Part shown: one piece after another, positions 1-45,523 of the stretch
Layout of the letters: each line of letters starts with the position of its first letter
Numbering within the stretch: position 1 is the first letter of the stretch
The notes under the pieces: model-generated
What the model saw: the letters and a program-made list of their open reading frames with translations, nothing else
Databases searched by the model: none
What the model was told of the DNA's origin: nothing
Virus record (IMG/VR): IMGVR_UViG_3300036399_000656
Coordinates: 1-62,091 of that record
Direction: 5' to 3' (one strand)
DNA: 62,091 bases
Source: a virus
Lineage: Duplodnaviria > Caudoviricetes
Program-made: the position numbers and the translations under genes

Positions 1-262
1 CTTTGCTGTCCTCGGTGCATTCGTACCATTGGCCGTCATGCTTCTCATACCACTCGCCTTCATCTTCCCAATCCCATTCGGTGTAGCAGTAGGCGTCGTC
101 GTCGTATGCCTCGTCGAGGTCGGCGTAGCCACTCTCGATTGCGTAGCGTTCGGCGTCGTCCTTCTCAATGAAGTATTGAAGGCTCTCTTCGAATAGGAAG
201 CCCTCGTTCATGCCCTCGTTTGTTGCACTGCATATGCGTGCGAATCTTTCAGTCGTTTCCAT
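1..262 (-). CDS. Highly acidic small early protein (truncated by window edge), DNA-mimic candidate
   Basis: ATG at 262, open to window edge: METTERFARICSATNEG...DLDEAYDDDAYCYTEWDWEDEGEWYEK; about 28 D/E vs 6 K/R in 87 visible residues; shares the TAAACCAACAGCAAC-ATG leader with the neighbouring gene. Confidence 0.75.
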   Translation of the reverse strand, partial: METTERFARICSATNEGMNEGFLFEESLQYFIEKDDAERYAIESGYADLDEAYDDDAYCYTEWDWEDEGEWYEKHDGQWYECTEDSK

Positions 263-274
263 GTTGCTGTTGGT

Positions 275-460
275 TTAGTAGTCCCTCTTTTCGAGTTCCT
301 TGTTGATTGATTTGATTTCCTTTTGAACTGCCTTCAGGAGTGCCTCGTCCTCGTTGAACACGTGGCGATAAGAACCCGTTAGCAGGTCGTTGATTTGGTG
401 CAGACATTCGATGCGCTCGCACAATTCGAAGTCGCTCATGATTTGGTGCTTGTTAGTCAT
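275..460 (-). CDS. Hypothetical early protein (61 aa)
   Basis: ORF track; same 18-nt start context as the ORF at 262. Confidence 0.7.
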   Translation of the reverse strand: MTNKHQIMSDFELCERIECLHQINDLLTGSYRHVFNEDEALLKAVQKEIKSINKELEKRDY

Positions 461-479
461 GTTGCTGTTGGTTTATTGA

Positions 480-689
480 TTAGTATTTACGTCCTCCATA
501 TGATAACCTTGTCTTCCTGAATGGCGCAAACATGGCGCATTCGGCTTGGTATGTGGCTGTATCGACAACCTCGTAGCCCTTACGCACCATGGATGCAATG
601 AAGTTAGCCTCATGCTGTGCGTCATTGATGTTTACCACCATATCGAAGGAGTACTGCGATGGGCGGCGAAAAAAGAATCGTTTTTTCAT
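480..689 (-). CDS. Hypothetical early protein (69 aa)
   Basis: ORF track; related leader TAAATTCAACAGC-ATG; tightly packed in operon. Confidence 0.7.
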   Translation of the reverse strand: MKKRFFFRRPSQYSFDMVVNINDAQHEANFIASMVRKGYEVVDTATYQAECAMFAPFRKTRLSYGGRKY

Positions 690-702
690 GCTGTTGAATT
701 TA

Positions 703-747
703 GAAACAGGGCAGGGAATCGAACCCTGCCTTGCACCATGCCTGTTT
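703..747 (-). ncRNA. Mini tRNA-like element (acceptor stem plus T-arm, no anticodon arm), copy 1
   Basis: Minus strand AAACAGG-CATGGTGCAAG-GCAGGG-TTCGATT-CCCTGC-CCTGTTT-C: 7-bp stem, 6-bp T-stem, TTCGA T-loop. Confidence 0.75.
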
Positions 748-1222
748 AGATGATTGAGTAATGAGCATCATTTGCGATGGCCTGAGCCGCGAGACGTGCA
801 TACGTCGCACGTTGCGTCTCAGTGCCGGCAACCTGTGGTTCAGGAAGGTCAATCACCTTATCGAGGTCAATTGAGTACATTGCCCGTTGGCCGTTGTGAA
901 TACCGAATTCAGCGGCCTCTTCGATAGTCTCGAAGTGACGGCTAATGTCTAGTACTAGCTTGCCGCTTTCCCACCAACCACCGATGTAGTTGTCGTCCTG
1001 CTCTAGCAACAGGCCGTTGGTTGCAATGAAGTCACGAACGTGCTGTGCAATCATTTCAGCCTGCAATTCACGCTTGTAGCGGATGAATGAGGTCGGAAGG
1101 TCAGCGATGTACTCATGGCCGTGAATCGAGGCAAATGCGCCTGTAGTTGGTATGCCATGGCTGAGGTGGTGAGTAGCCCCGTTGCCCGCAACGAGGGACT
1201 CGACAAAAGTGTTGAGGTTCAT
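746..1222 (-). CDS. Early protein (158 aa), apparently homologous to a module of the 2650-aa giant; possibly SAM-lyase-like fold
   Basis: Motifs NGAT...FIATN...YIGGW...LDIS...AAEFGIHNGQRAMYSID align by eye with giant-protein segment 43887-44204. Confidence 0.7.
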   Translation of the reverse strand: MNLNTFVESLVAGNGATHHLSHGIPTTGAFASIHGHEYIADLPTSFIRYKRELQAEMIAQHVRDFIATNGLLLEQDDNYIGGWWESGKLVLDISRHFETIEEAAEFGIHNGQRAMYSIDLDKVIDLPEPQVAGTETQRATYARLAAQAIANDAHYSII

Positions 1223-1238
1223 ATGATATTGAAATTTA

Positions 1239-1283
1239 GAAACAGGAGCGGGAGTCGAACCCGCTCTTGCACCATGCCTGTTT
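1239..1283 (-). ncRNA. Mini tRNA-like element, copy 2
   Basis: AAACAGG-CATGGTGCAAG-AGCGGG-TTCGACT-CCCGCT-CCTGTTT-C; T-stem differs from copy 1 by compensatory changes. Confidence 0.75.
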
Positions 1284-1767
1284 AGAAGATTGTCGTGTAA
1301 ATGCGGCCGTATGTGCGGCTTTGCTCTGCTAGGTAATCCCTTGCTGTATCGTTGCGCTTGAAGCGAATTGAGCGGCGGTTGTAATGCAGGATATTGTCCT
1401 CATCAATGGCAACCTCAACCCAAGGTGTGTTTGTCATGGATGCGCTGTACGATACACGATGGATGACCCGAACGCCTGTGCTGTTGCTGAATACTGAGAA
1501 GTACTCGTCGTAGCCGTTTGGACTCTCGTTCCTGTCTCGCTTGTACCACTTGACGTTGCCGTCAGTCAGTGTGAGCAAGCTATCAATTCGCTTGTCCCAT
1601 TCACGCGGGTTGTAATCGCGTCCCTGCTCTCTGATTTCATCAGTCGTGAGCGGTATCAGTTGAGCAATTGGCGCATAGTCGTGTATGTGAGCGTCGATTG
1701 TCTCTTGTGATAGGTTCATTTGCTTGAAGATTTCTACTTCGAATGCTGTGCCTTTTGTCATGTTCAT
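1282..1767 (-). CDS. Hypothetical protein (161 aa), first CDS of early operon
   Basis: ORF track; flanked by tRNA-like elements. Confidence 0.75.
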   Translation of the reverse strand: MNMTKGTAFEVEIFKQMNLSQETIDAHIHDYAPIAQLIPLTTDEIREQGRDYNPREWDKRIDSLLTLTDGNVKWYKRDRNESPNGYDEYFSVFSNSTGVRVIHRVSYSASMTNTPWVEVAIDEDNILHYNRRSIRFKRNDTARDYLAEQSRTYGRIYTTIF

Positions 1768-1790
1768 GATGTTGAGTTTTTAAGTGTTTA

Positions 1791-1868
1791 GAACAACGCG
1801 GGGACTCGAACCCCGTGCGATACTAGCAACCTCAGTTATCTAGTATTGCCGCGCCTTGCGTCGTTGCT
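1791..1868 (-). ncRNA. tRNA-like element with long central arm, copy 3
   Basis: AGCAACG/CGTTGTT acceptor stem, CGGGG-TTCGAGT-CCCCG T-arm, central GCAATACTAG/CTAGTATCGC stem; same C-TAAA trailer as copies 1 and 2. Confidence 0.7.
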
Positions 1869-2245
1869 ATAGTTGTCATTGCGGCACGTTTGCCTTTGCG
1901 AGCAGTCACGTTGTTAATGTTAACTGCTCCCCACATCACTGCGGGATTTATATTGCGCTGTTGCGCTTTTTTACAGGCCATTGCGGTACTCTGCTTTTTA
2001 CTCCCGTGCTATTTACACGGCTCAGGCAAGTTTAACCTGTAACTCCTAACCTTGTTACTGACAGGTTGCCAAATGTTGTTGGCCATTTGCGGGCTTGCTC
2101 CCGTCGCGTCGTCGCCTTCGCGCTCACCCTCTTTTGATTGTTGCAGAGAGGGAATCAGAACTGCTAGCTATCTTCAAGTTTCGTAAGCCTCACGGGTTAC
2201 TACTAGTTCGGGTGATGTGAAGCACTCCGTTGTTCCGTTGAACGG
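1869..2245 (-). ncRNA. Long structured 5' leader or large ncRNA candidate
   Basis: No ORF of 60 aa or more; about ten visible hairpins between the promoter at 2249-2256 and tRNA-like copy 3. Confidence 0.5.
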
Positions 2246-2248
2246 GGG

Positions 2249-2277
2249 CAAAGATAATGGTAAGTGATTGTTTCAAA
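2249..2277 (-). promoter_or_regulatory. Bacteroidota-type promoter of early operon
   Basis: TATCTTTG (-7 box) at 2256-2249 and TTTG at 2277-2274. Confidence 0.7.
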
Positions 2278-2340
2278 AAGAATTTAAAGAACCTTCTAAA
2301 ACACCTGTGTTTACAGGGCATTCAGAAAACGCAACCTCTT

Positions 2341-3483
2341 GAAACCCGCGCCAAATCAGCAAAATAACTACATCAAAAAAAAAGTTTCAAAACACCCTAA
2401 AAAAACCTCTGCATCCCTTGTGGCTCTAGGCGTATATGAGTTATTAACAAAAATGAAAATACCTGTTGAAATCCTTGGAAGCCGCGTAAACATTGACTAT
2501 CTTTGTAACCAATAGTGCTGAAAGCCGCGTCAGTATTGAGATACAGGCCGGCGGGAGAAAGTCAAAAATGGTCATTTTGAGGGTATGCGCTAGGCATTGG
2601 AGAGGGTAGCAGACAGGGAAGAAACCCAAAACATCGCGGGATGTTCTCTAGGACAGGCACAGCGCGGGATACAGGGCAAAAATCAACAAAAAGCGTTCAC
2701 TCCCTGTCACGCAGTCTACAGGATATCAGATAGGGGATAAACAAGCAAGCCAAACAGCAGGCAAAGGACAGGCCCAATCGCGGGCAAATCCACCACAGAT
2801 TCCACTAGATAACACACAAACAGCATAGAGATAGGCAAAGAGCAATAAAACCACTCATGCGCGCTCGCACATTGGCTCTCACAATCTAGGGTTGCCCGAA
2901 GCAGAAATTCCAAGCATTGCCTGTATCACAGTATTGACGCGGGTTCTAGGCGGTTTCTATTGGCTTGCATGACCATGTCGAGCGGGTTATTTGGCCTGCA
3001 TGGTGTGCATGGCTGAGCGGAATCTAACGTGCTGATAACTAACACGTTGGTGCTTTTATGCAAACAGGTTGATTATCAATGGGTTAGTCTACTTTCTCCA
3101 CGGGGCGGAGACAAGTTTACGGGGTGTCGAGCAGGCTATCGGGTGCGGGTTGTTGGGTGTGTGTTGCGTGGTCATTGGGTGCCTGTCGTCGGCATAGTAA
3201 GTGTATGATGTACACTAAGTCCTAGCACGTGTAGTAAGTGTATGGTGTACACTATCTCTACAGCCCGCATTGTTCCACGTATGTTCCACGGCCTGCTCCC
3301 CACGTTATCTTGCTGACTATCAGCGACATAGCTAAGTAGGTGTAACTGACTGCAAATCAGCCGATTGGAGGGTACCCCTGTTGCCAAATCGACTTCGGGA
3401 AGGGGTCGCGGCGGTGGCGGTGGGAGGGGTGACCCCAACCACAATTGGTCAATAAAATGTCTAAAAATGTCTAGGAATGTCTA
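2341..3483. repeat. Non-coding repeat-rich region, putative genome terminus or packaging region
   Basis: AA(C/G)CCGCG(T/C)(C/A)A motif at 2341, 2478, 2520 and inverted at 2929-2948; TGAnnAnCA-type palindromes around 3031-3360; GGGGTCGC/GTGACCCC stem 3402-3436; AATGTCTA x3 with 10-bp period 3456-3483. Confidence 0.5.
2498..2505 (+). promoter_or_regulatory. TAnnTTTG promoter box facing into the non-coding region
   Basis: TATCTTTG; no convincing downstream CDS. Confidence 0.4.
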
Positions 3484-3510
3484 ATTTTTTGGATAATAGA
3501 TGATCTTGCA

Positions 3511-3518
3511 TATATTTG
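3511..3518 (+). promoter_or_regulatory. Promoter of basic-protein cluster
   Basis: TATATTTG 13 nt before ATG 3532. Confidence 0.65.
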
Positions 3519-3531
3519 TAAAAAAAAGGCT

Positions 3532-4056
3532 ATGAAGAGCAAATCAATGGCATCACGCCAGTACACTGCAAATATGTTCGGAAAGAGCAGTGGGGACCCT
3601 GGTAAGCGTCAGGCACGTCAAGAGCGTCGTGACGCTAGACAAGCGACTCGTGGCGGTAGCAAAAGCAATGACAATGTTGAGGTTTGTACAGCCAAGACAG
3701 CGAAGGAGGGTAAGTGTGGTGCTTACGCCGGCGGTGGTCCAAGTACGGGCACTGTTCAGAAGGCTAAGAACACAAAGCCTTCTTCGGGTGGTGAGAAGAA
3801 TGTTGTGTTGAAGGAGGGGAGTCGTAAGTTAGCTCGTCATCAGCGCAATTTGGCTAAGGTTCGTGCCAAGGCTCCTGCCCGTCCGATGACCCGTAAGGAG
3901 AAGGAGAAGGCGAATGAGATGCGTCCATCGCGCCAGGATTACAATGACAACAATGTTCCACGAGTTTCGTCTGCTAGACCGGCTCCTAAGCCTGCTAAGA
4001 AGGGTGTGTTGGGTAAAATTTTTAAGACTAGAAAAACTCAGAAAATAACAATCTAA
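3532..4056 (+). CDS. Lys/Arg-rich basic protein (174 aa)
   Basis: ORF track; low complexity, strongly basic. Confidence 0.75.
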   Translation: MKSKSMASRQYTANMFGKSSGDPGKRQARQERRDARQATRGGSKSNDNVEVCTAKTAKEGKCGAYAGGGPSTGTVQKAKNTKPSSGGEKNVVLKEGSRKLARHQRNLAKVRAKAPARPMTRKEKEKANEMRPSRQDYNDNNVPRVSSARPAPKPAKKGVLGKIFKTRKTQKITI

Positions 4057-4060
4057 GGAT

Positions 4061-4420
4061 ATGCCAGAAAAAGTAAAAAAGAACCTGCTAGGTCGTGAGG
4101 TTACCAAATCAAAAACATATATTGGCCCTCCTGGAGTTAGTAAGAGTGACAAGGCAAAGGTGAAAACGAAGACTATTCGCAAGGGCGATACTACCAAGAC
4201 TCGTGAGGTGACTAAATATGGCGGTAAGAGAACGGTAGAAAAGACTAAAAATTACGGAGTTGGTGGGAATTCTTTAACCAAAAAAACGGTAAAATCGGGC
4301 GGCAAAACGGATCGTTCGGTTGAGGTTAAAAAGCCAGGAGAAACATTTACTTACGCCAATATGGGTCCTGCATCCCAGGCCCGTGCATACAATTTCCAAA
4401 AGAAAAAACTCAAAAAATAA
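4061..4420 (+). CDS. Lys/Thr-rich basic protein (119 aa)
   Basis: ORF track; KTKTI/REVTK repeats resemble the ORF at 4739. Confidence 0.75.
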   Translation: MPEKVKKNLLGREVTKSKTYIGPPGVSKSDKAKVKTKTIRKGDTTKTREVTKYGGKRTVEKTKNYGVGGNSLTKKTVKSGGKTDRSVEVKKPGETFTYANMGPASQARAYNFQKKKLKK

Positions 4421-4713
4421 TGAAAAAACCATCAGCCGGCCCAAAGAATCCTTTGAGACTGAAAACTCGACAAGAGAGAAATCAGTCTAAGCTCAACAAG
4501 GTAAACACAAGAATATCAAAGTTGGAATCTAGTCAGAAGGAGTTAAACAAGCAAGAGTACCTGAATAAGGCTGCTAGTAGAATTACTGGTGTTTCTGAAT
4601 CAAGCCTTGCCCAGGGTAAACTTGGACAGCTTCAGAAGAAGAAGCAGCGAATAGAAAATATGATTACTCCAGGAAGACAAAAAACTGTGAAGACAGTAAA
4701 AAAAGGTAAATAA
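4420..4713 (+). CDS. Basic coiled-coil protein (97 aa)
   Basis: ORF track; TAATG translational coupling. Confidence 0.75.
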   Translation: MKKPSAGPKNPLRLKTRQERNQSKLNKVNTRISKLESSQKELNKQEYLNKAASRITGVSESSLAQGKLGQLQKKKQRIENMITPGRQKTVKTVKKGK

Positions 4714-4738
4714 TTTTAATATCAAACAATCCAATAAA

Positions 4739-5158
4739 ATGGCTAGTTCTCCAAAAAACGATAGTACCCGCACCCGCAGAACGCTTGGTGGTGGTACAAA
4801 GACCGTTATCAAGTCGAAAGGTATTACTGGTAAGAAACGCACTGTGCTTCGCGAAATTCCAACTGATAAGGGCGTGGTGACCACTAAAAAAGAAGTTACC
4901 AGAAATAAGTATCCTGATGGCATCAGAACTAAAAGTAAGAAAGAGACTGTGTACAGAGGTGGTCAAAATAAAAACCTAACGACAGTTAAAGAAAAAACAT
5001 CTAAGGGCGGCCTTCTTAACAAGGCGAAGGGTTTGGTTAAAGGTTCTAACAAGTATGCATACACATCAGGTGACAACTTTGTAAGTTCTGCGAAAGAAGT
5101 TAATTATGGCTACGCAAAAAAACTGCAAAAGAGCATAAAAAAGGGAAGAACTAACTAA
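4739..5158 (+). CDS. Lys/Thr-rich basic protein (139 aa)
   Basis: ORF track; A-rich start context. Confidence 0.75.
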   Translation: MASSPKNDSTRTRRTLGGGTKTVIKSKGITGKKRTVLREIPTDKGVVTTKKEVTRNKYPDGIRTKSKKETVYRGGQNKNLTTVKEKTSKGGLLNKAKGLVKGSNKYAYTSGDNFVSSAKEVNYGYAKKLQKSIKKGRTN

Positions 5159-5201
5159 TGGCCAATGCATAATTGGTAAAACAGTAAAAAAGGTAAATAA
5201 A

Positions 5202-5675
5202 ATGGCTATTAAAAAAACGACTCCTCAAAACTCTCCTGACCCTAGACATAAGTCTTATGACAAGTTTAGAAAGGATCCATTAAGTAAGACACCTCAAAGA
5301 GGTGATAAAACAATTCGTTTTGATACGACTGATGCCGGGAAGACTTACACCAAAACTGTTTACAAAAGAGTTGGTGAAAAAAGAACGGACAGAGTAGCCA
5401 AAAAAGATCCTTATGCAAGATTTGGGAGCGATACCATTATAAAGCGAAAAACAGTATCCGCTAACAAGGCATTGCGTCAAGCTACTAGACTGTCTAAGAG
5501 ACCAGAAAACAAGTCTAAGTTAAATAACGAATCAGCACCTAAGAAAAATTCGTCAAAAGAAACTAGCAAGTCGGTTGGTTCTGCTGCTCCAGCTGCTGCT
5601 AAATCTTCTGCTGCTAAATCTGCCGCTGCTAAGAAACAAATTCCAAAAATGCGCGGAAAATACGGAAAAATGTAA
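5202..5675 (+). CDS. Basic protein with AAKS histone-H1-like tail (157 aa)
   Basis: ORF track; AAAKSSAAKSAAAKK. Confidence 0.75.
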   Translation: MAIKKTTPQNSPDPRHKSYDKFRKDPLSKTPQRGDKTIRFDTTDAGKTYTKTVYKRVGEKRTDRVAKKDPYARFGSDTIIKRKTVSANKALRQATRLSKRPENKSKLNNESAPKKNSSKETSKSVGSAAPAAAKSSAAKSAAAKKQIPKMRGKYGKM

Positions 5676-6853: not shown

Positions 6854-6861
6854 TTGTTTTG

Positions 6862-6957
6862 TAGCCAGGACAGGACTCGAACCTGTATGGGTGAAAATTT
6901 ATACGTCGTTTCTACACCCTTACTACGCTTAGCGTCTACCAATTCCGCCACCTGACT
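6862..6957 (-). ncRNA. tRNA-Leu-scaffold RNA without canonical anticodon arm
   Basis: AGTCAGG-TGGCGGAATTGGTAGACGC (Leu-type D arm)...ACAGG-TTCGAGT-CCTGT-CCTGGCT-A; centre is a GGGTG/CACCC stem; no 5-bp/7-nt anticodon arm; no CCA. Confidence 0.75.
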
Positions 6958-7239: not shown

Positions 7240-7364
7240 TAGTCAGGACAGGATTCGAACCTGCATATACTTCAGATACTATCTGCTGGATTGTATTAAT
7301 ATGGCAAAGTATATTCGTATCCAGTTACATACCATATTAGCGTCTACCATTCCGCCACCTGACT
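7240..7364 (-). ncRNA. tRNA-Leu-scaffold RNA with expanded centre (125 nt)
   Basis: AGTCAGG-TGGCGGAATGGTAGACGC...GCAGG-TTCGAAT-CCTGT-CCTGACT-A; centre has a TAATATGG/CCATATTA stem with a large loop and a CAGAT/ATCTG hairpin. Confidence 0.75.
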
Positions 7365-9052: not shown

Positions 9053-10072
9053 TTATTTAATCTTGCCGTTTACGATACGGTAGTTTGTAACCTCAAACTC
9101 TTCATTATCAAATACTTTCACGTGGGCGAAGCCGTGTGTAAATTTGTTAATCGGCATATAGTCCGGGTGAAGTTCACACAGGCAGGCTACCGACCAGCAG
9201 GTTGTAACCTTTCCGTTGATGTTGGGTTCGGTATGCTCCGAGGTCTGGTGGTGGTGTCCGCAGATAGCGTTGTCCTTTGCGCGAAGATAGAGTCCACGGG
9301 CAATGTTTACCGGGCTGAACATACTTGATCCAAACTCGTGTCCGTGTAGTGCTACTAGCTTACCCATTCGCACTAGCTGCTTGTCTGGAATGAACGTGAT
9401 GTTGAGCTGCTTGAGATGTAAGATAGATTCTAACGAAAACTCCTCAATGCCGACAAGGTCTGATGCGTTATTGATCAGATAGTGGTCCCATCGGATGTCG
9501 TGGTTTCCTGCTTTGAAGTATATTGCTTGTGTAGGGAACAGTTTCCGCAGCGTGTAGAGGAATTCCCGCGCCATGTAAATTTCCGACGCCAGGTCGCGCT
9601 TGCGAGGATCTTTTTGAAAACGGCTAATGGCGTAGAAGTCGATAAGGTCTCCGTTGATGTAGATGGTGTTGACTTCGTTTTCGAGTCCGTATTTAAGCGC
9701 TGTTGTGAGCGCAGGAATGTTGTGATATGGTACGTGAATGTCGGTAAGAAAAAGGATATCATTGTGGTTTACCGGAAATTTATATGGATTGTATTGCTTT
9801 TCCTTTGAGTCTGGAAGACCTAGCGGGTTGTTATCGGGAACTAAGTCGTTAATGATTTGCTCAAACGCACCCACCACCTTGTTTGGATTGACCTTAGCCT
9901 TCTTTACATGCTTTGATGAGTTGTTTTTTTTCCACGCCATGAATGCGCGTTTGAAAGACTCTAGGCTTATATCGGATTTTACGTTTTCGTATTCTAACTC
10001 AAGCCTTTTGTTTTGACTTAAATCGCTTGGGTCTTTTAAAACATTGAGGTAATTTTGGACGTTGTTTTTCAT
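9053..10072 (-). CDS. Calcineurin-like metallophosphoesterase
   Basis: DIH, GDLIDF, GNHD, HGH and GHHH motifs; promoter box at 10096-10089. Confidence 0.88.
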   Translation of the reverse strand: MKNNVQNYLNVLKDPSDLSQNKRLELEYENVKSDISLESFKRAFMAWKKNNSSKHVKKAKVNPNKVVGAFEQIINDLVPDNNPLGLPDSKEKQYNPYKFPVNHNDILFLTDIHVPYHNIPALTTALKYGLENEVNTIYINGDLIDFYAISRFQKDPRKRDLASEIYMAREFLYTLRKLFPTQAIYFKAGNHDIRWDHYLINNASDLVGIEEFSLESILHLKQLNITFIPDKQLVRMGKLVALHGHEFGSSMFSPVNIARGLYLRAKDNAICGHHHQTSEHTEPNINGKVTTCWSVACLCELHPDYMPINKFTHGFAHVKVFDNEEFEVTNYRIVNGKIK

Positions 10073-43000: not shown

Positions 43001-45020
43001 TGACTTTATCTTGCTTACTACTGGTCGTAGTGATTTGTTTGTTACAGACAGAGTTAGGGTAGATCACTTCTGGGACGGAAATAACTTTAAGAAGAAGCGT
43101 GGTTTAAAGGAGTCAACCTCTTTGTATGATGGAAGCGACTTGGCGTATGGTGCAGCAACAGGTGCTGGATTTAGTAAGATACTATCAGATGTGCCTGGAT
43201 TAGTGTTTAATGAATTGGCGAACAGAACTATGACGCCCATAGTTGAAAAGGCTTACAAACAGATAGGAGTAAAAGATTATCCTGAGGTAGGCAGATTTCA
43301 CTGGGAAACATGGGTAGCTGCTAGTTCTCAGGAAGTTTCTCACGGATCTATTGATGCTATTGTACAAAGAAAAGAGAAAGGAGAGATACAAGACGCCGGC
43401 ATTCGTCAAGGTAAATATGGCGCATGGGATTTTAATTTTGCGTACAAGAAAAGAGCGGGGAAAGATTTCGTTTATGAATTTGTAGACAATGACGGCAACA
43501 CTTATGTGTTTGATAAGATTAATGATATTCAAGACGAGATAGAGAAACAAAAGAAAAAAACATACGAAACAAATAATAGATTTTTATTACCAGATGCAAA
43601 AGGAAACATATCAAGGCCAACAAAAGGCTTATCGACCGCTTGGTACGACACAGAACTCGTCGATGCAGAAAAATATTTCGAATTCCTCAGAAGCAAAGCA
43701 AAGGAAATCATTCCAGCACCTGATGTCGTTGAAGATCAAGGCGTCGTAATTGAAAAGCCGAAATCTGAAAAGATTTCTAAGGAAAAGAAACCAACTGGCC
43801 AACCATCCCAAGGCATCCCAAGAACACCTAAAGAATTCGCAGGTAATGTAGGAGAGACGATCGACCGTATCAAGGCCGCAACATCGGAGGACGGAGCAAC
43901 GCTCAACCTCGATGGTACAACCTACGAAGACGGAGGTCTTGTGGTTCCTGCCGGTTCATTGAACGTGGCCCAGGACGAGGTTACTGCCGAGGGCTTGTTT
44001 GAGTTCTTAAAGGATAACGAGGAGAACATTTCTAGCGACATATTCAAGATCGGACTTTACAAGTTTCCAGACCGTCCAGAGGTTTCTTACGACTTGAACA
44101 TCGTGATTCCAAGGGAGTACCGTGATGTGGCCTTGAAGTTTGGTGAATTGTCTGGACAGGAATCACTGTTCGACCTTGATACGTTTGAGAACATCAAGAC
44201 CGGATCAGACGGTAAGAATCCACGCAAATTCACGGCCCAAGAGCTTGCTGAGATTGCCAAGGATTTGTCTGAGGGTAGACTTCCAAAGATTGTTTCAAAA
44301 GAAGAGATTGATAGAAAGTGGGGAGAGAAAAAAATGATCGCTTTAACTAAGCGAGAGGATCTTGGAACAAAGACTGACAGAGAGATTGCTGCCTATGCTT
44401 CTAAATTCCTGAATAAATTCGGACCATATACCAAGGCCAATGTTGTTCAGATTATGAATATGTCTGCTGAAGAGAAAATCAAACTCATCAATGACACATT
44501 TGAGGCTAGGGTCAAAAAAATGAATCCAGCCTTTAGAGAGCCTGGAAATGATTTTTATGATCAATCAGTTAAGCGTAGGGATGAGGTATTAGCTCTGGTT
44601 ACAAAGCCAACCGGCCAGCCATCAATGATGAAGCGTACTCCAGCCCAAATCAGACAGGCTGTAGAAGATGGGGTAGACGCAGTTGAAGCAGCGATTGCTG
44701 AGGGCGTGGATCCACAGCAGGCCGTTGACGAGAACATCTCAAACCAGGAATGGTACGGTGATTTGAGTGCTGCCCAGAAAGAACAGCTCAATGAAATCCT
44801 TCAAGACGAGTTCGGGGCTACGGCGAGTGAACCTAAACTACAGAACAACGCCCAGCGTGTAGCTGATCTTTGGGAAAAGGGTGGAAAAGAAGCCAAGGCA
44901 GAGATCAAGAACATTTTGGAGACTGACCCTGAACTTTCGTACATTTACAACAATTTCCCGAAGATAACTAAGCAGTTACAGGAACAGGGATTGTTGACTA
45001 AAACAGAGAATTGTCCATGA
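37068..45020 (+). CDS. Giant polyvalent ejection protein (2650 aa)
   Basis: Gly/Ala membrane-insertion segments, GNAT-like module, HEGIH zincin motif, HhH-glycosylase-like module, module shared with early gene 746-1222. Confidence 0.8.
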   Translation: MADTLTPEEKKRLTEELTKYANEGASDDDLRQFRNAFISELKKKGGGQPASGAPAAKPTKPSAPSFGQKVVSEVTQPQIKIPLRGKQKPPVAKKPYQDIYYKPEGLPSETTQIPETPVIKAAKQDFKQTQLKPQIQPVKTAQELEEIEKKTEKADKTGLVLNEYQSSADALNELNRLKKDNANEFYRNIKDARPDLYEKYSGRTIQEGRNIESDISESQKDRDIVYQNYLSDLQRTDESHRNTLSKVGPIVNSVVDKKVTPENYKRLTTSHTTDIGGDVVDMGKVDDEATAIAEKYNLPTDGEAWRLLKNKIKSNTDFQIIKPQAEELFKQNYPELHAKRQKMFEDGFKYDDEIYSKVESELTSLQNQYEADAKNELNAIDAEYKSKSELLNQQYKDFTSQSEKVGAELDNLYKSGQIDRLEYENRWGLLQKEKKDYYDLYEKQFPSLDEYVKKSNEINSKYNRKFELQKKALTDKAQAQIKAEFDKYSTNYKEDPAVLEELNKAYRDSYELASDIRTKTMGLGAEMSSAPMSKLYQSTLSSLGGVFKGWGGSLDSKTLELLGESMEQNFMMPAARTEEFKDWLDPQNLQLLTGQLLGSMAPSMAITAAVATSTGGTGIPAIVPMITGGLAGWASETVDIVGRSYLDMFEKSGGDVAKSNKAAERSLKSQYDLMWAYSFDALPFVGKVLGGIPTKVGRVAAGAGIEMGTEFLQEYPQNIAEENIQKGLDPWTNLGQALRDTKKMKETLISIGPVAILGGAGQLGSKSAKQEAVDTYVAMQQKAALSMALPDQKRQYIQNMVFDRGGKFARGVVGAMFADGTIDEETSKDLLVQVENSEKIQEAGKGAGLKGSKLNIYGFYSARAEEAERNAAKFGNDPILSESYKQQAKQYRDAGLDFMKGNNPDLLTVTYADGSQAMMTPEDVNGLFSNPIALTLLNRKKISVEAYREGGQGGKALQELTERADAYKQSKKYVAPNKTEDEVNASFEAQSVQEKEQKKDTRDIEIEQIQQQREALGVSEVDAFFSDMKPLVATMVERMEAGQAAPQSGVKAASDYLYAKYKELTAMKADPNRMMTIAQIESIQAQIEQDLQTLAGNPPSQQTQTNDQENIQGLPSEVGVGQEPIAAQPVQVTSEEAPATGGVLQTPGEKVVEVKLAELPTVTVEGQAVEVTPTTEAAAEQVGTQPSIGINQKAESVETSSIQERAKATNAKIKRKDIFDGVGVFSEKLGGSDVESVPVGHSEIGNAEIVQYANPKTGIIDVIVAGITENDFVGFYRIYENGKPTNRWSSKFETQTASKEDFKSMISGVQNALPQGHEYTETTSISTDGLRVWNQQLNRGYELQYDEKGKLVTTPVYINGDSKTNILGIPVNKGAFDAISVTNADTFNKVKEVLLPFLEKFGLNETNIRAVNGSVEIDLPVLRQKATPQVTPQVTPESAPVTKPSLGQRLRIAAEAAETTVTVQEPSPVKEEKKEGVAPAPKTEEKPTRKTRLAKLFETSEGEEAVPLIEQSLSESGIKVDVKDDADYNNDDRIKRSQGRGSEGMFVADDGTIILNRDKIKGEWGKTIVFHEGIHPVVNIIRNTDPKRYRAIVDGLKSEAARNNAVAKAAADIAASEEYQRRGPESIEDETVVETMARVATGDIDINTFKPSFREKFIEFMNDIAKVFGLRPILTNSPRVEVKRLAEQINKMLNEGGKISDVVGKKNVGKFQNTISDGQYSIDARIADKGVQVPRSEKLPLKIVASKEESVMRRINELLDKYPNALTDKEQWKELMSRVFPITVDGEVFIPAFPEGLSRMAGSVQETLKEINKVSDEQRKLASEGLKGTKEIGELYKQGKMDEVDTGLYFLWNIMSIGISPYPQESGFLQAVNGGVDKYIKLAAAGKFNESTLKEYLNWVDGVLPKGTPGAGSKSNLNSFGKSFLSKAAQEIESGEFEGKTKLQALHEILSDRKTPTNELRRKWQANMSAMQFNNKIFDFILLTTGRSDLFVTDRVRVDHFWDGNNFKKKRGLKESTSLYDGSDLAYGAATGAGFSKILSDVPGLVFNELANRTMTPIVEKAYKQIGVKDYPEVGRFHWETWVAASSQEVSHGSIDAIVQRKEKGEIQDAGIRQGKYGAWDFNFAYKKRAGKDFVYEFVDNDGNTYVFDKINDIQDEIEKQKKKTYETNNRFLLPDAKGNISRPTKGLSTAWYDTELVDAEKYFEFLRSKAKEIIPAPDVVEDQGVVIEKPKSEKISKEKKPTGQPSQGIPRTPKEFAGNVGETIDRIKAATSEDGATLNLDGTTYEDGGLVVPAGSLNVAQDEVTAEGLFEFLKDNEENISSDIFKIGLYKFPDRPEVSYDLNIVIPREYRDVALKFGELSGQESLFDLDTFENIKTGSDGKNPRKFTAQELAEIAKDLSEGRLPKIVSKEEIDRKWGEKKMIALTKREDLGTKTDREIAAYASKFLNKFGPYTKANVVQIMNMSAEEKIKLINDTFEARVKKMNPAFREPGNDFYDQSVKRRDEVLALVTKPTGQPSMMKRTPAQIRQAVEDGVDAVEAAIAEGVDPQQAVDENISNQEWYGDLSAAQKEQLNEILQDEFGATASEPKLQNNAQRVADLWEKGGKEAKAEIKNILETDPELSYIYNNFPKITKQLQEQGLLTKTENCP
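40384..40521 (+). CDS. Nested small basic protein (45 aa) in +1 frame of the giant
   Basis: MIKKTSKGYQVKSESGKNLSQPNLSKSQAKKRLQQVEFFKHRGKK; leader ACAACAAACTCAAACGA-ATG. Confidence 0.7.
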   Translation: MIKKTSKGYQVKSESGKNLSQPNLSKSQAKKRLQQVEFFKHRGKK

Positions 45021-45523
45021 TGACACCTAATAAACTCGATAAGAAAGCCGTTGACCTACTCATCCCGCGAATGAAGGATGAGTACAACGCATTTTACTTT
45101 TACCGTGCCGCCAGCAACTGGTGTCAGGGGGTTGGCTTTTTCCAAGCGGCCAAGTTCTTTGCTGCCGAGTCGCAGGATGAGCTTGAACACGCAAAGAAGA
45201 TTGAGGACTACATCACCGACTGGAATGTGATTCCGGAACTGCCAACGGTGGCTCGCCCACAACTAGATTTCTCTAGTATTGTGGAGGTTTTGGAAGAGGC
45301 TTATAAGATCGAGTACGATTTGTACGAGGCTTACGAGGAGACGTCGAAGAAACTTTTCGAGATCGACCTGTGCGTGTTTGACTTTCTCCAACCACTGCGG
45401 TTGATACAGAACAAGTCTGTTGCTGAGTACAGCGACAAACTTAACCTGCTCGAAGGGGTAGAGGGTACTGATAAATTCAAAGCACTGTTGTTGGAAGAAA
45501 AGTTATTCCCCGTAAATGGCTAA
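45017..45523 (+). CDS. Non-heme ferritin-like protein (FtnA-like)
   Basis: E..A...Y...., AAKFF..ES.DELEHAKK, EEAYKIE, FDFL....IQ; ATG 45017 overlaps the stop of the giant. Confidence 0.88.
   Translation: MMTPNKLDKKAVDLLIPRMKDEYNAFYFYRAASNWCQGVGFFQAAKFFAAESQDELEHAKKIEDYITDWNVIPELPTVARPQLDFSSIVEVLEEAYKIEYDLYEAYEETSKKLFEIDLCVFDFLQPLRLIQNKSVAEYSDKLNLLEGVEGTDKFKALLLEEKLFPVNG

Follow-up and report, generated by a model that had tools for sequence, protein, structure and literature searches.

A structured leader RNA with a tRNA-like 3' domain, and candidate tRNA-style punctuation, in the early operon of a tailed phage

In mitochondria, tRNAs punctuate the polycistronic transcripts, and the tRNA-like mascRNA defines the 3' end of MALAT1. 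Phages also have noncoding RNAs (ncRNAs) that are cut from longer transcripts by the RNase P of the host and that vary in an allele-like way, namely the C4 antisense RNA of P1 and P7 and the CI RNA of P4. Plant mitochondria contain t-elements, which are partial tRNA mimics (PMC1920247). Here we describe a locus with features of this sort at the head of the early operon of a tailed freshwater phage (Caudoviricetes; IMG/VR record IMGVR_UViG_3300036399_000656). The window that we analysed is the entire virus record, 62,091 bases with an estimated completeness of 95%, and the locus lies on its minus strand (Table 1). About 375 nucleotides (nt) without a conserved open reading frame (ORF) separate a promoter box from a 78-nt tRNA-like domain, which we call the mimic, and two tRNA-like mini-helices follow further down the operon. 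The core of this leader, the mimic, and the mini-helices have conserved structures; their order and strand are fixed; the leader behaves as a cassette; and it has no conserved ORF and belongs to no known family. We lean towards the view that the leader is an accessory structured ncRNA of about 375 nt and that host RNase P and RNase Z free it from the early transcript at the tRNA mimics, with the cleavage being what we infer rather than what we observe.

We gathered relatives of the locus with two protein searches and three DNA pattern scans, which gave 54 pattern-matching stretches. Of these, 37 have the 3' end of the family and 17 are chance matches (mostly true tRNAs), and the 37 reduce to 23 non-redundant leaders. 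Because a DNA pattern can find only those leaders that have the 5' acceptor strand and the T loop written into it, we added loci selected by protein: 65 loci were fetched via the phosphoesterase gene (9053-10072 in the window) and were searched with covariance models. Of the 25 among them whose sequence extends 8 kb or more past the phosphoesterase gene, 15 have a full tRNA mimic, three have mini-helices only (L064, L065, and L067), and seven have neither at the thresholds used. In these last seven (L106, L110, L112, L114, L115, L117, and L118, with phosphoesterases 61-66% identical and 9-10 kb of downstream sequence), neither RNA model matches, and they may either lack the elements or contain diverged ones.

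The mimic has a 7-base-pair (bp) acceptor stem, including a G2-U71 pair, and a 5-bp T stem with the loop UUCGAGU, which together give the 12-bp stack of a tRNA. The D-like stem has 3 bp and a 5-nt loop with a GG that is invariant at columns 18-19, and the variable loop has 5 nt. There is a U at -1, the discriminator is a C and is followed by UAA (so that a U comes right after it), and CCA is not encoded. Instead of an anticodon arm with its 7-nt loop, the mimic has a 10-bp hairpin in which one base is bulged and 4 nt form the cap; some relatives (the type B loci discussed below) have a shorter, GCAA-capped hairpin here. Across 14 sequences, 13 of 25 pairs are changed on both sides, 97.7% of the cells of the alignment are paired, and all four helices covary. 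None of 500 shuffles scored as high, and slid controls gave 0-2 such pairs. The acceptor stem is 99% paired and the T stem is 100% paired, with four of its five pairs covarying. Two of the 14 sequences (L102 and L091) were found by the covariance model in the protein-chosen loci rather than by an RNA pattern; the acceptor stem of the L091 mimic covaries, and its T loop is deviant.

Standard tools do not recognise the mimic as a tRNA. The one tRNA that ARAGORN reports in the window lies outside the leader, and the Rfam tRNA model does not match the leader at its gathering score or at an expect value (E) of up to 10, even in a search of 511 nt. The only Rfam model that matches the mimic is mascRNA-menRNA (RF01684), with a sub-threshold score of 23.5 bits as compared to a threshold of 42.5; the best relative scores 30.7. 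With relaxed settings on the first 2400 bases, ARAGORN made scattered false calls only. We also considered a tmRNA-like closure, in which GAACAACG at the 5' end of the transcript would pair with the 3' acceptor strand, but there is no covariation between these in L014, L018, L026, or L051, where the 3' strand differs, and neither ARAGORN nor Rfam calls a tmRNA in the leader.

In each of the mini-helices, which are of a kind that we call M1, an 11-nt linker with UGG connects the 7-bp acceptor stem to a 6-bp T stem that bears a T loop, and the discriminator is a C. Seven of the 13 pairs are changed on both sides across 16 copies from relatives, and the window has exactly two strong matches. The mimic and the two mini-helices, all on the coding strand, separate the leader and the ORFs of 161, 158, and 69 amino acids from each other. 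The stop codons of the 161- and 158-amino-acid ORFs overlap the first two bases of the mini-helix that follows, the mini-helices end 13-16 nt before the next ATG, and there is no promoter box between the three elements. The same layout recurs: 16 of the 23 non-redundant loci have at least one mini-helix on the strand of the mimic and no more than about 4 kb downstream of it, and none is found upstream. In the other seven loci, the downstream sequence is 1264 nt long at most.

Some relatives also carry a composite element, M2, in which a tRNA-like mini-helix is combined with a short hairpin, a conserved word similar to GCUCGUAAU, and a GGGAGG..CCUCCC hairpin. It is present at 3359-3470 and 4422-4540 of L009 and also in L002, L003, L004, L013, L019, L020, L030, and L039. 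A new promoter box follows the second copy in L009, and M2 seems to close the operon in these relatives. The window, in the part that it covers, has no M2. Neither M1 nor M2 occurs in a genome collection in which 185,579 species are represented by one genome each. Within the window, after the punctuated part of the operon, an identical 18-nt intergenic word (UAAACCAACAGCAACAUG, minus strand, at 260-277 and 458-475) joins the stop and start of small early ORFs.

The core of the leader, about 250 nt that are common to all of what we call type A, has 11 helices in an alignment of 10 sequences (from RNAalifold and our own refinement). Sixteen of its 58 pairs are changed on both sides, 99.1% of the cells are paired, and slid controls gave 0-2. 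Eight of the 11 helices, including the one that forms a pseudoknot, have at least one double-changed pair. Several of the hairpins have GNRA caps, and a long-range helix whose strands are both invariant (CGGAAC/GUUCUG) closes the core. The pseudoknot forms by pairing of CUUGC at 2026-2030 with GCAAG, which is the loop of the CGGG..CCCG hairpin at 2090-2103. Three consecutive pairs of the five in this helix (helix 7) are double-changed, with GUUCG/CGAAC instead of GCAAG/CUUGC in 4 of the 10 sequences, and the stem of the hairpin covaries in L102 (CGAG/CUCG). It is these changes, in the loop and its distant partner and in the stem, that lead us to call it an H-type pseudoknot; three helices lie inside its long connecting loop. 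The 3' part of the leader is another matter. The last 120 nt or so before the mimic vary between subgroups of type A, and the 3' module of the window is common only to its closest relatives; L043 and subgroup A2 have a different sequence there. These close relatives differ too little for pairing to be assessed, and the sole notable change is that a GUGA loop becomes GUAA.

An earlier, sequence-only reading of this stretch had proposed a large structured ncRNA that ends in a tRNA mimic, and the structure, the covariation, and the lack of a conserved ORF all agree with that. It placed the box (2249-2256, minus strand) and the first ATG (1767) correctly, and three of its helices (CCCTCT/AGAGGG, GCCA/TGGC, and CCGTG/CACGG) are supported by the alignment. 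What it saw as one helix, AACCTGT/ACAGGTT, is really two (AACCT/AGGTT and GTAAC/GTTAC). It was right about the CGGG/CCCG hairpin, whose loop additionally pairs with the distant CTTGC to form the pseudoknot. CCGTT/AACGG is not supported; the alignment fold instead pairs CGGAAC with the distant GTTCTG. The last four of its helices fall in the module that is limited to the closest relatives, and it missed the two mini-helices, the pseudoknot, and the swappable nature of the leader. It had also suggested a comparison of folding energies to those of shuffled sequences. The result was modest for 1768-2260 (z = -1.99, with 3 of 100 shuffles as good), as compared to z = -1.58 for the leader without the mimic (5 of 100) and z = -0.53 (30 of 100) when the antisense strand is folded. 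The conserved structure in relatives that it asked for is there, as the covariation indicates.

The leader does not match a known RNA family. We found no Rfam match for the leader, for type B, or for the other variants, and the families for GOLLD, ROOL, put, tmRNA, and riboswitches do not match the leader at E of up to 10; nor do GOLLD and ROOL match the type B relatives at that E. We class the leader as a new RNA family. We also looked for antisense targets elsewhere in the window, and the best complementarity is 13 nt (E = 0.35), which is at the level of chance.

The interval from the promoter box to the first ATG of the early operon, at 1767, is 482 nt long and does not have an ORF of 60 or more amino acids, as had been noticed from the sequence: the longest are 49 amino acids in sense and 59 in antisense. 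The related claim that most promoters in this genome lie about 30 nt from their ATG was roughly right, given that 11 of the 21 intergenic TAnnTTTG boxes sit 6-39 nt before the next ATG, whereas that of the leader is 482 nt away. The position of this box is identical in all 9 type A leaders, and type B has a near-consensus form. From what is known about Bacteroides promoters, we predict that the transcript starts 5-8 nt downstream of the box, near 2241-2244. A second TATCTTTG box, at 2498-2505 on the plus strand, faces the opposite direction. Roughly 1 kb with no ORF lies between it and the next gene on that strand, which starts at 3532 and has its own box at 3511. The stretch 2498-3510 contains direct repeats, and its folding energy beats that of shuffles (z = -2.96; none of 20 is as good). 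It could be a second long noncoding transcript, or else an origin or a regulatory region.

Leaders of different types occupy the same place. Type A includes the window and 11 other loci (nine have the full 5' end, and L102 was added later), while type B includes 11 loci and its middle is unrelated to that of type A. The two types share the promoter, a similar first 35 nt or so, and the tRNA mimic; across the variants, the unrelated middles span 190-440 nt. In both types, a GGAAC-like word near the 5' end can pair with a distant GUUCU, so a closing helix may be all that their folds have in common. The 161-amino-acid ORF follows leaders of types A1, A2, and B alike. Conversely, L003 lacks the 161-amino-acid ORF and L002 lacks the 158-amino-acid ORF, with the breakpoints at the tRNA mimics. 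And L064, L065, and L067, whose phosphoesterases are 89% identical, have the mini-helices but no homologue of 1790-2760; their operon opens with ORFs that are a few bases past a promoter-like box. Because these three relatives run a homologous operon without the leader, the leader must be dispensable for the operon as such.

We noticed a third variant of the leader at 8830-9263 of L091 and at 11650-12089 of L080. It has words in common with type B (AGUUCWUUGAUGUACUGCAA and a GUGUGAMAAAGCAC hairpin), and both of these loci have mimics with changed acceptor pairs. Some type B leaders contain CUGAUGA, which is reminiscent of a hammerhead, but in others it is interrupted by a hairpin insert, and there was no match to a ribozyme in Rfam. 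Nor did Rfam support a resemblance of type B motifs to RNase P RNA.

How might the leader be released? A 12-bp stack, a T loop, a U at -1, a U after the discriminator, and the absence of CCA all favour RNase P and RNase Z, and both of the tRNAs of this phage likewise lack CCA. Because the geometry of the mimic matches what these enzymes need, we think that the host's enzymes would cut there: RNase P on the 5' side of each mimic (1869|1868 is the predicted site at the end of the leader) and RNase Z after the discriminator base (predicted at 1791|1790). These cuts would free the ncRNA and would turn the polycistronic early transcript into separate mRNAs, each with a short, A-rich leader. Once free, the ncRNA would presumably act in trans. 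That the versions of the leader are unrelated and interchangeable, and that some close relatives lack it, suggests that its role is accessory (for example, in host take-over or counter-defence) and not one of housekeeping.

What evidence there is for expression comes from assembled contigs from RNA libraries. Four runs were mapped; contigs cannot show the ends of transcripts, and carry-over of DNA is possible. Contigs from the four mapped runs cover both early ORFs, and 1787-2229 is covered by contigs from two runs in two studies (X2 and X3), which is weak evidence of expression. A contig from a relative diverges from the window exactly at 1787. There are no contigs on 2281-3600 in the four runs, and near the predicted start of the transcript there are 151-nt contigs that stop at 2223 and 2229, but these are of read length and the depth is 2-3, so we cannot use this as evidence. 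Contigs also end near the mini-helices, at 1287 and 742, which are too few to count. More broadly, 16 RNA runs share 5-16% of the words of 600-2400, and the unmapped runs among them are not evidence of habitat or of expression.

Several of our observations count against the release of a structured ncRNA, or at least reduce the support for it. The folding energy only modestly beats that of shuffles and alone would be weak support. The structure of the core was derived from nearly the same alignment that we used to count pairs, and the sequences that we compared are few and mutually related. The acceptor stem of the mimic varies in only one sequence, and the conservation of the acceptor strand and the T loop is partly circular, since most homologues were found with patterns that fix those parts. 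In type B, just 3 of 37 predicted pairs covary, so we call type B structured by analogy to type A and from its conserved hairpins only. A contig from a relative's RNA library (X2, record 6) spans the whole mimic into the next gene, which implies that uncut precursor or DNA was present. A family scan of the phage's ORFs did not find a recognisable RNA-processing enzyme, which is neutral if host enzymes do the cutting. Finally, a cut by RNase P at the mini-helices would strip the stop codons from the upstream ORFs, which argues against efficient 5' cutting there. At the mini-helices, then, either the 3' cut might occur alone and leave a protective tRNA-like 3' end, or cutting might compete with translation and shorten the life of the upstream message.

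We considered other explanations for these elements. The mimics themselves could be the product: they would receive CCA from the host and act as decoys or competitors for proteins that bind tRNAs (such as defence nucleases, modification enzymes, or elongation factors), and the leader would be secondary. The T loop, the GG in the D-like loop or the linker, and the tRNA-length stack are all kept under compensatory change, there are three mimics in the window and up to three per related locus, and the mimics are the part that is common to all of the types of leader. But anticodon nucleases usually target an anticodon loop, which the mimics do not have and so cannot imitate; the genes nearby do not encode a binding partner; and the strict placement between ORFs, with stops and starts abutting, better suits processing signals. 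We consider decoys to be unlikely. It is also unlikely, in our view, that the leader acts in cis to control read-through into the early genes, either as a riboswitch-like sensor or by antitermination or attenuation; the weak terminators would be the T-arm hairpins together with the U-rich sequence 3' of each. Antitermination had been suggested in the sequence-only reading, and the leader does lie between a promoter and the first ORF and does have a complex pseudoknotted fold, as a riboswitch might; also, a simple scan for terminators flags all three T arms. However, the U tracts are short and pair with the upstream strand across the 11-nt linker (the flank is paired in 99.5% of cells), and a terminator would not need the conserved sequence of the T loop, although that conservation was set in part by our search patterns. 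Antiterminator and riboswitch families do not match at E of up to 10. The operon runs without any leader in L064, L065, and L067, and the same first gene lies behind leaders of types A1, A2, and B.

Other alternatives would give the elements no function as RNA, or would give the leader a different one. If the tRNA-like elements were recombination linkers for cassettes of early genes, or decayed tRNA genes, then this would account for the mosaic junctions at the elements in L003 and L002 and for the relative's contig that diverges exactly at 1787. However, a DNA linker predicts that the sequence would be identical, not that double changes would preserve the helices, and the elements lie on one strand and always downstream of the promoter, so this seems improbable to us. 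Attachment sites of phages often copy the 3' halves of tRNAs, and the mimic might be such a site, matching the 3' half of a host tRNA for integration. There is an example from an archaeal virus (PMC8707807). Yet the T arm with the 3' acceptor strand, and likewise the mini-helix, have 0 exact matches in one genome from each of 185,579 bacterial or archaeal species; there is no integrase among the 57 ORFs that were scanned; and this locus has both acceptor strands and three elements in series. We give attachment almost no credence. Last, the leader could encode a small protein in the frame of 49 amino acids at 1832-1981 (minus strand), which is open in the window, L009, and L045 (49-50 amino acids). 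But these three sequences are nearly identical, the frame shrinks to 35 amino acids in L003, it is absent from L043 and from all A2 and type B leaders, and it sits in the variable module, within predicted hairpins. A small protein is very improbable.

We return to the release of a structured ncRNA at tRNA mimics, which is the explanation that we favour. A bolder version of it, which we offer tentatively and with considerable doubt, is that a group of freshwater phages of Bacteroidota punctuate their early operons in the style of mitochondria, with the tRNA enzymes of the host, and that the first cut frees a pseudoknotted RNA effector of about 375 nt that acts in trans, exists in unrelated interchangeable versions, and serves host take-over or counter-defence. 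If the cuts are real, then this would be an example from a bacterial virus of tRNA-style punctuation, which is otherwise known from organelles and from a few long ncRNAs of vertebrates, and it would mean that phages borrow the tRNA-processing enzymes of their host to mature both mRNAs and a large ncRNA without encoding any such enzyme themselves. The leader also adds several unrelated families, at a single locus, to the short list of large phage RNAs with complex folds. We did not find a description of such elements in phages in the portions of the literature that we searched, which does not prove that there is none in print. Because nature provides relatives with a type A leader, a type B leader, or no leader on the same operon, there is a clean handle for experiments, which most of those other RNAs do not offer, and the mini-helices could become compact processing signals for synthetic operons in Bacteroidota.

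Table 1. Features of the early operon and its leader (positions in the window)
Feature	Position	Strand	Basis
Promoter box TATCTTTG, Bacteroidota-type -7 box (TAnnTTTG)	2249-2256	-	Motif scan
Type A leader RNA, conserved core at the 5' end	1996-2243	-	Alignments, RNAalifold, pair counts
H-type pseudoknot in the core	2026-2103	-	Covariation
Variable 3' module of the leader, four local hairpins	1873-1995	-	Alignment of closest relatives
tRNA-like domain (mimic), 78 nt	1791-1868	-	Cloverleaf covariation, 14 sequences
A-rich unstructured spacer, 23 nt, from mimic to first ATG	1768-1790	-	Read off the sequence; layout same in relatives
First early ORF, 161 amino acids, no family	1282-1767	-	ORF and family scans
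Mini tRNA-like element M1, copy 1, 45 nt	1239-1283	-	Covariance model, 83.7 bits
Second early ORF, 158 amino acids, no family	746-1222	-	ORF and family scans
Mini tRNA-like element M1, copy 2, 45 nt	703-747	-	Covariance model, 80.9 bits

The rest of the window includes a terminase, a portal, a BT4734-like primase-helicase, NinG, and a CHAP lysin. In a motif scan, many of its genes are preceded by Bacteroidota-type TAnnTTTG boxes. Together with the BT4734-like primase domain, these boxes suggest that the host belongs to the Bacteroidota. A blastn search with 1-3600 against 50,697 deposited phage records gave no match. The window has two real tRNA genes, neither with an encoded CCA: a tRNA-Leu(UAA) at 6861-6957 (minus strand) and a gene at 7240-7364 (minus strand) whose match to the tRNA model, of 37.4 bits, requires an insertion of 68 nt in the anticodon region. 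ARAGORN does not call the latter, and given the insertion it may hold an intron. Five successive ORFs on the plus strand at 3532-5675 (of 174, 119, 97, 139, and 157 amino acids) are very rich in lysine and arginine and do not belong to a Pfam or PHROG family. At 30587-54228 (plus strand), giant ORFs of 1447, 2650, 1391, and 1128 amino acids are also without a match in Pfam or PHROG, and a ferritin-like protein (45017-45523) lies among them.

How does this locus compare to known systems? GOLLD and ROOL are also large structured ncRNAs of unassigned function that are carried by phages and that lie beside tRNA-type elements. The sequence-only reading had named them, and the put RNA of HK022, as analogues, but they are not relatives of the leader. 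The phage RNA is smaller than GOLLD or ROOL (about 190-440 nt across its variants) and stands at the head of an early operon, and where those lie near true tRNA genes, it is joined to a tRNA mimic. As with put, there is a structured RNA near the start of an early transcript, but put is just two short stem-loops, and close relatives of our phage manage without the leader. The C4 and CI RNAs differ in that they are short antisense regulators with known targets, while the leader has no complementarity above chance in the window.

The closer parallels are with mitochondria and with vertebrate nuclei. As with mitochondrial punctuation and the t-elements, the phage has tRNA-shaped elements between ORFs, with stop codons that abut or overlap their 5' ends and with the next ORF following soon after. 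Unlike in an organelle, the elements here are those of a bacteriophage, they are not functional tRNAs, and their cleavage is predicted; also, mitochondria complete truncated stop codons by polyadenylation, and we know of no counterpart for the phage. The mascRNA and the MEN-beta RNA (from MALAT1 and NEAT1) likewise have a tRNA-like fold without a working anticodon arm and come directly after a long structured ncRNA. Such a placement in a phage would let RNase P form the 3' end of the long RNA. But these are vertebrate nuclear RNAs, all of the phage scores are under the threshold of their model, and in the phage we see no triple-helix-like element upstream of the cut site, while coding sequence follows the mimic. 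The leader and its mimic fall outside all of these families, but by analogy they would work in much the same way as mascRNA and as punctuation in mitochondria or by plant t-elements.
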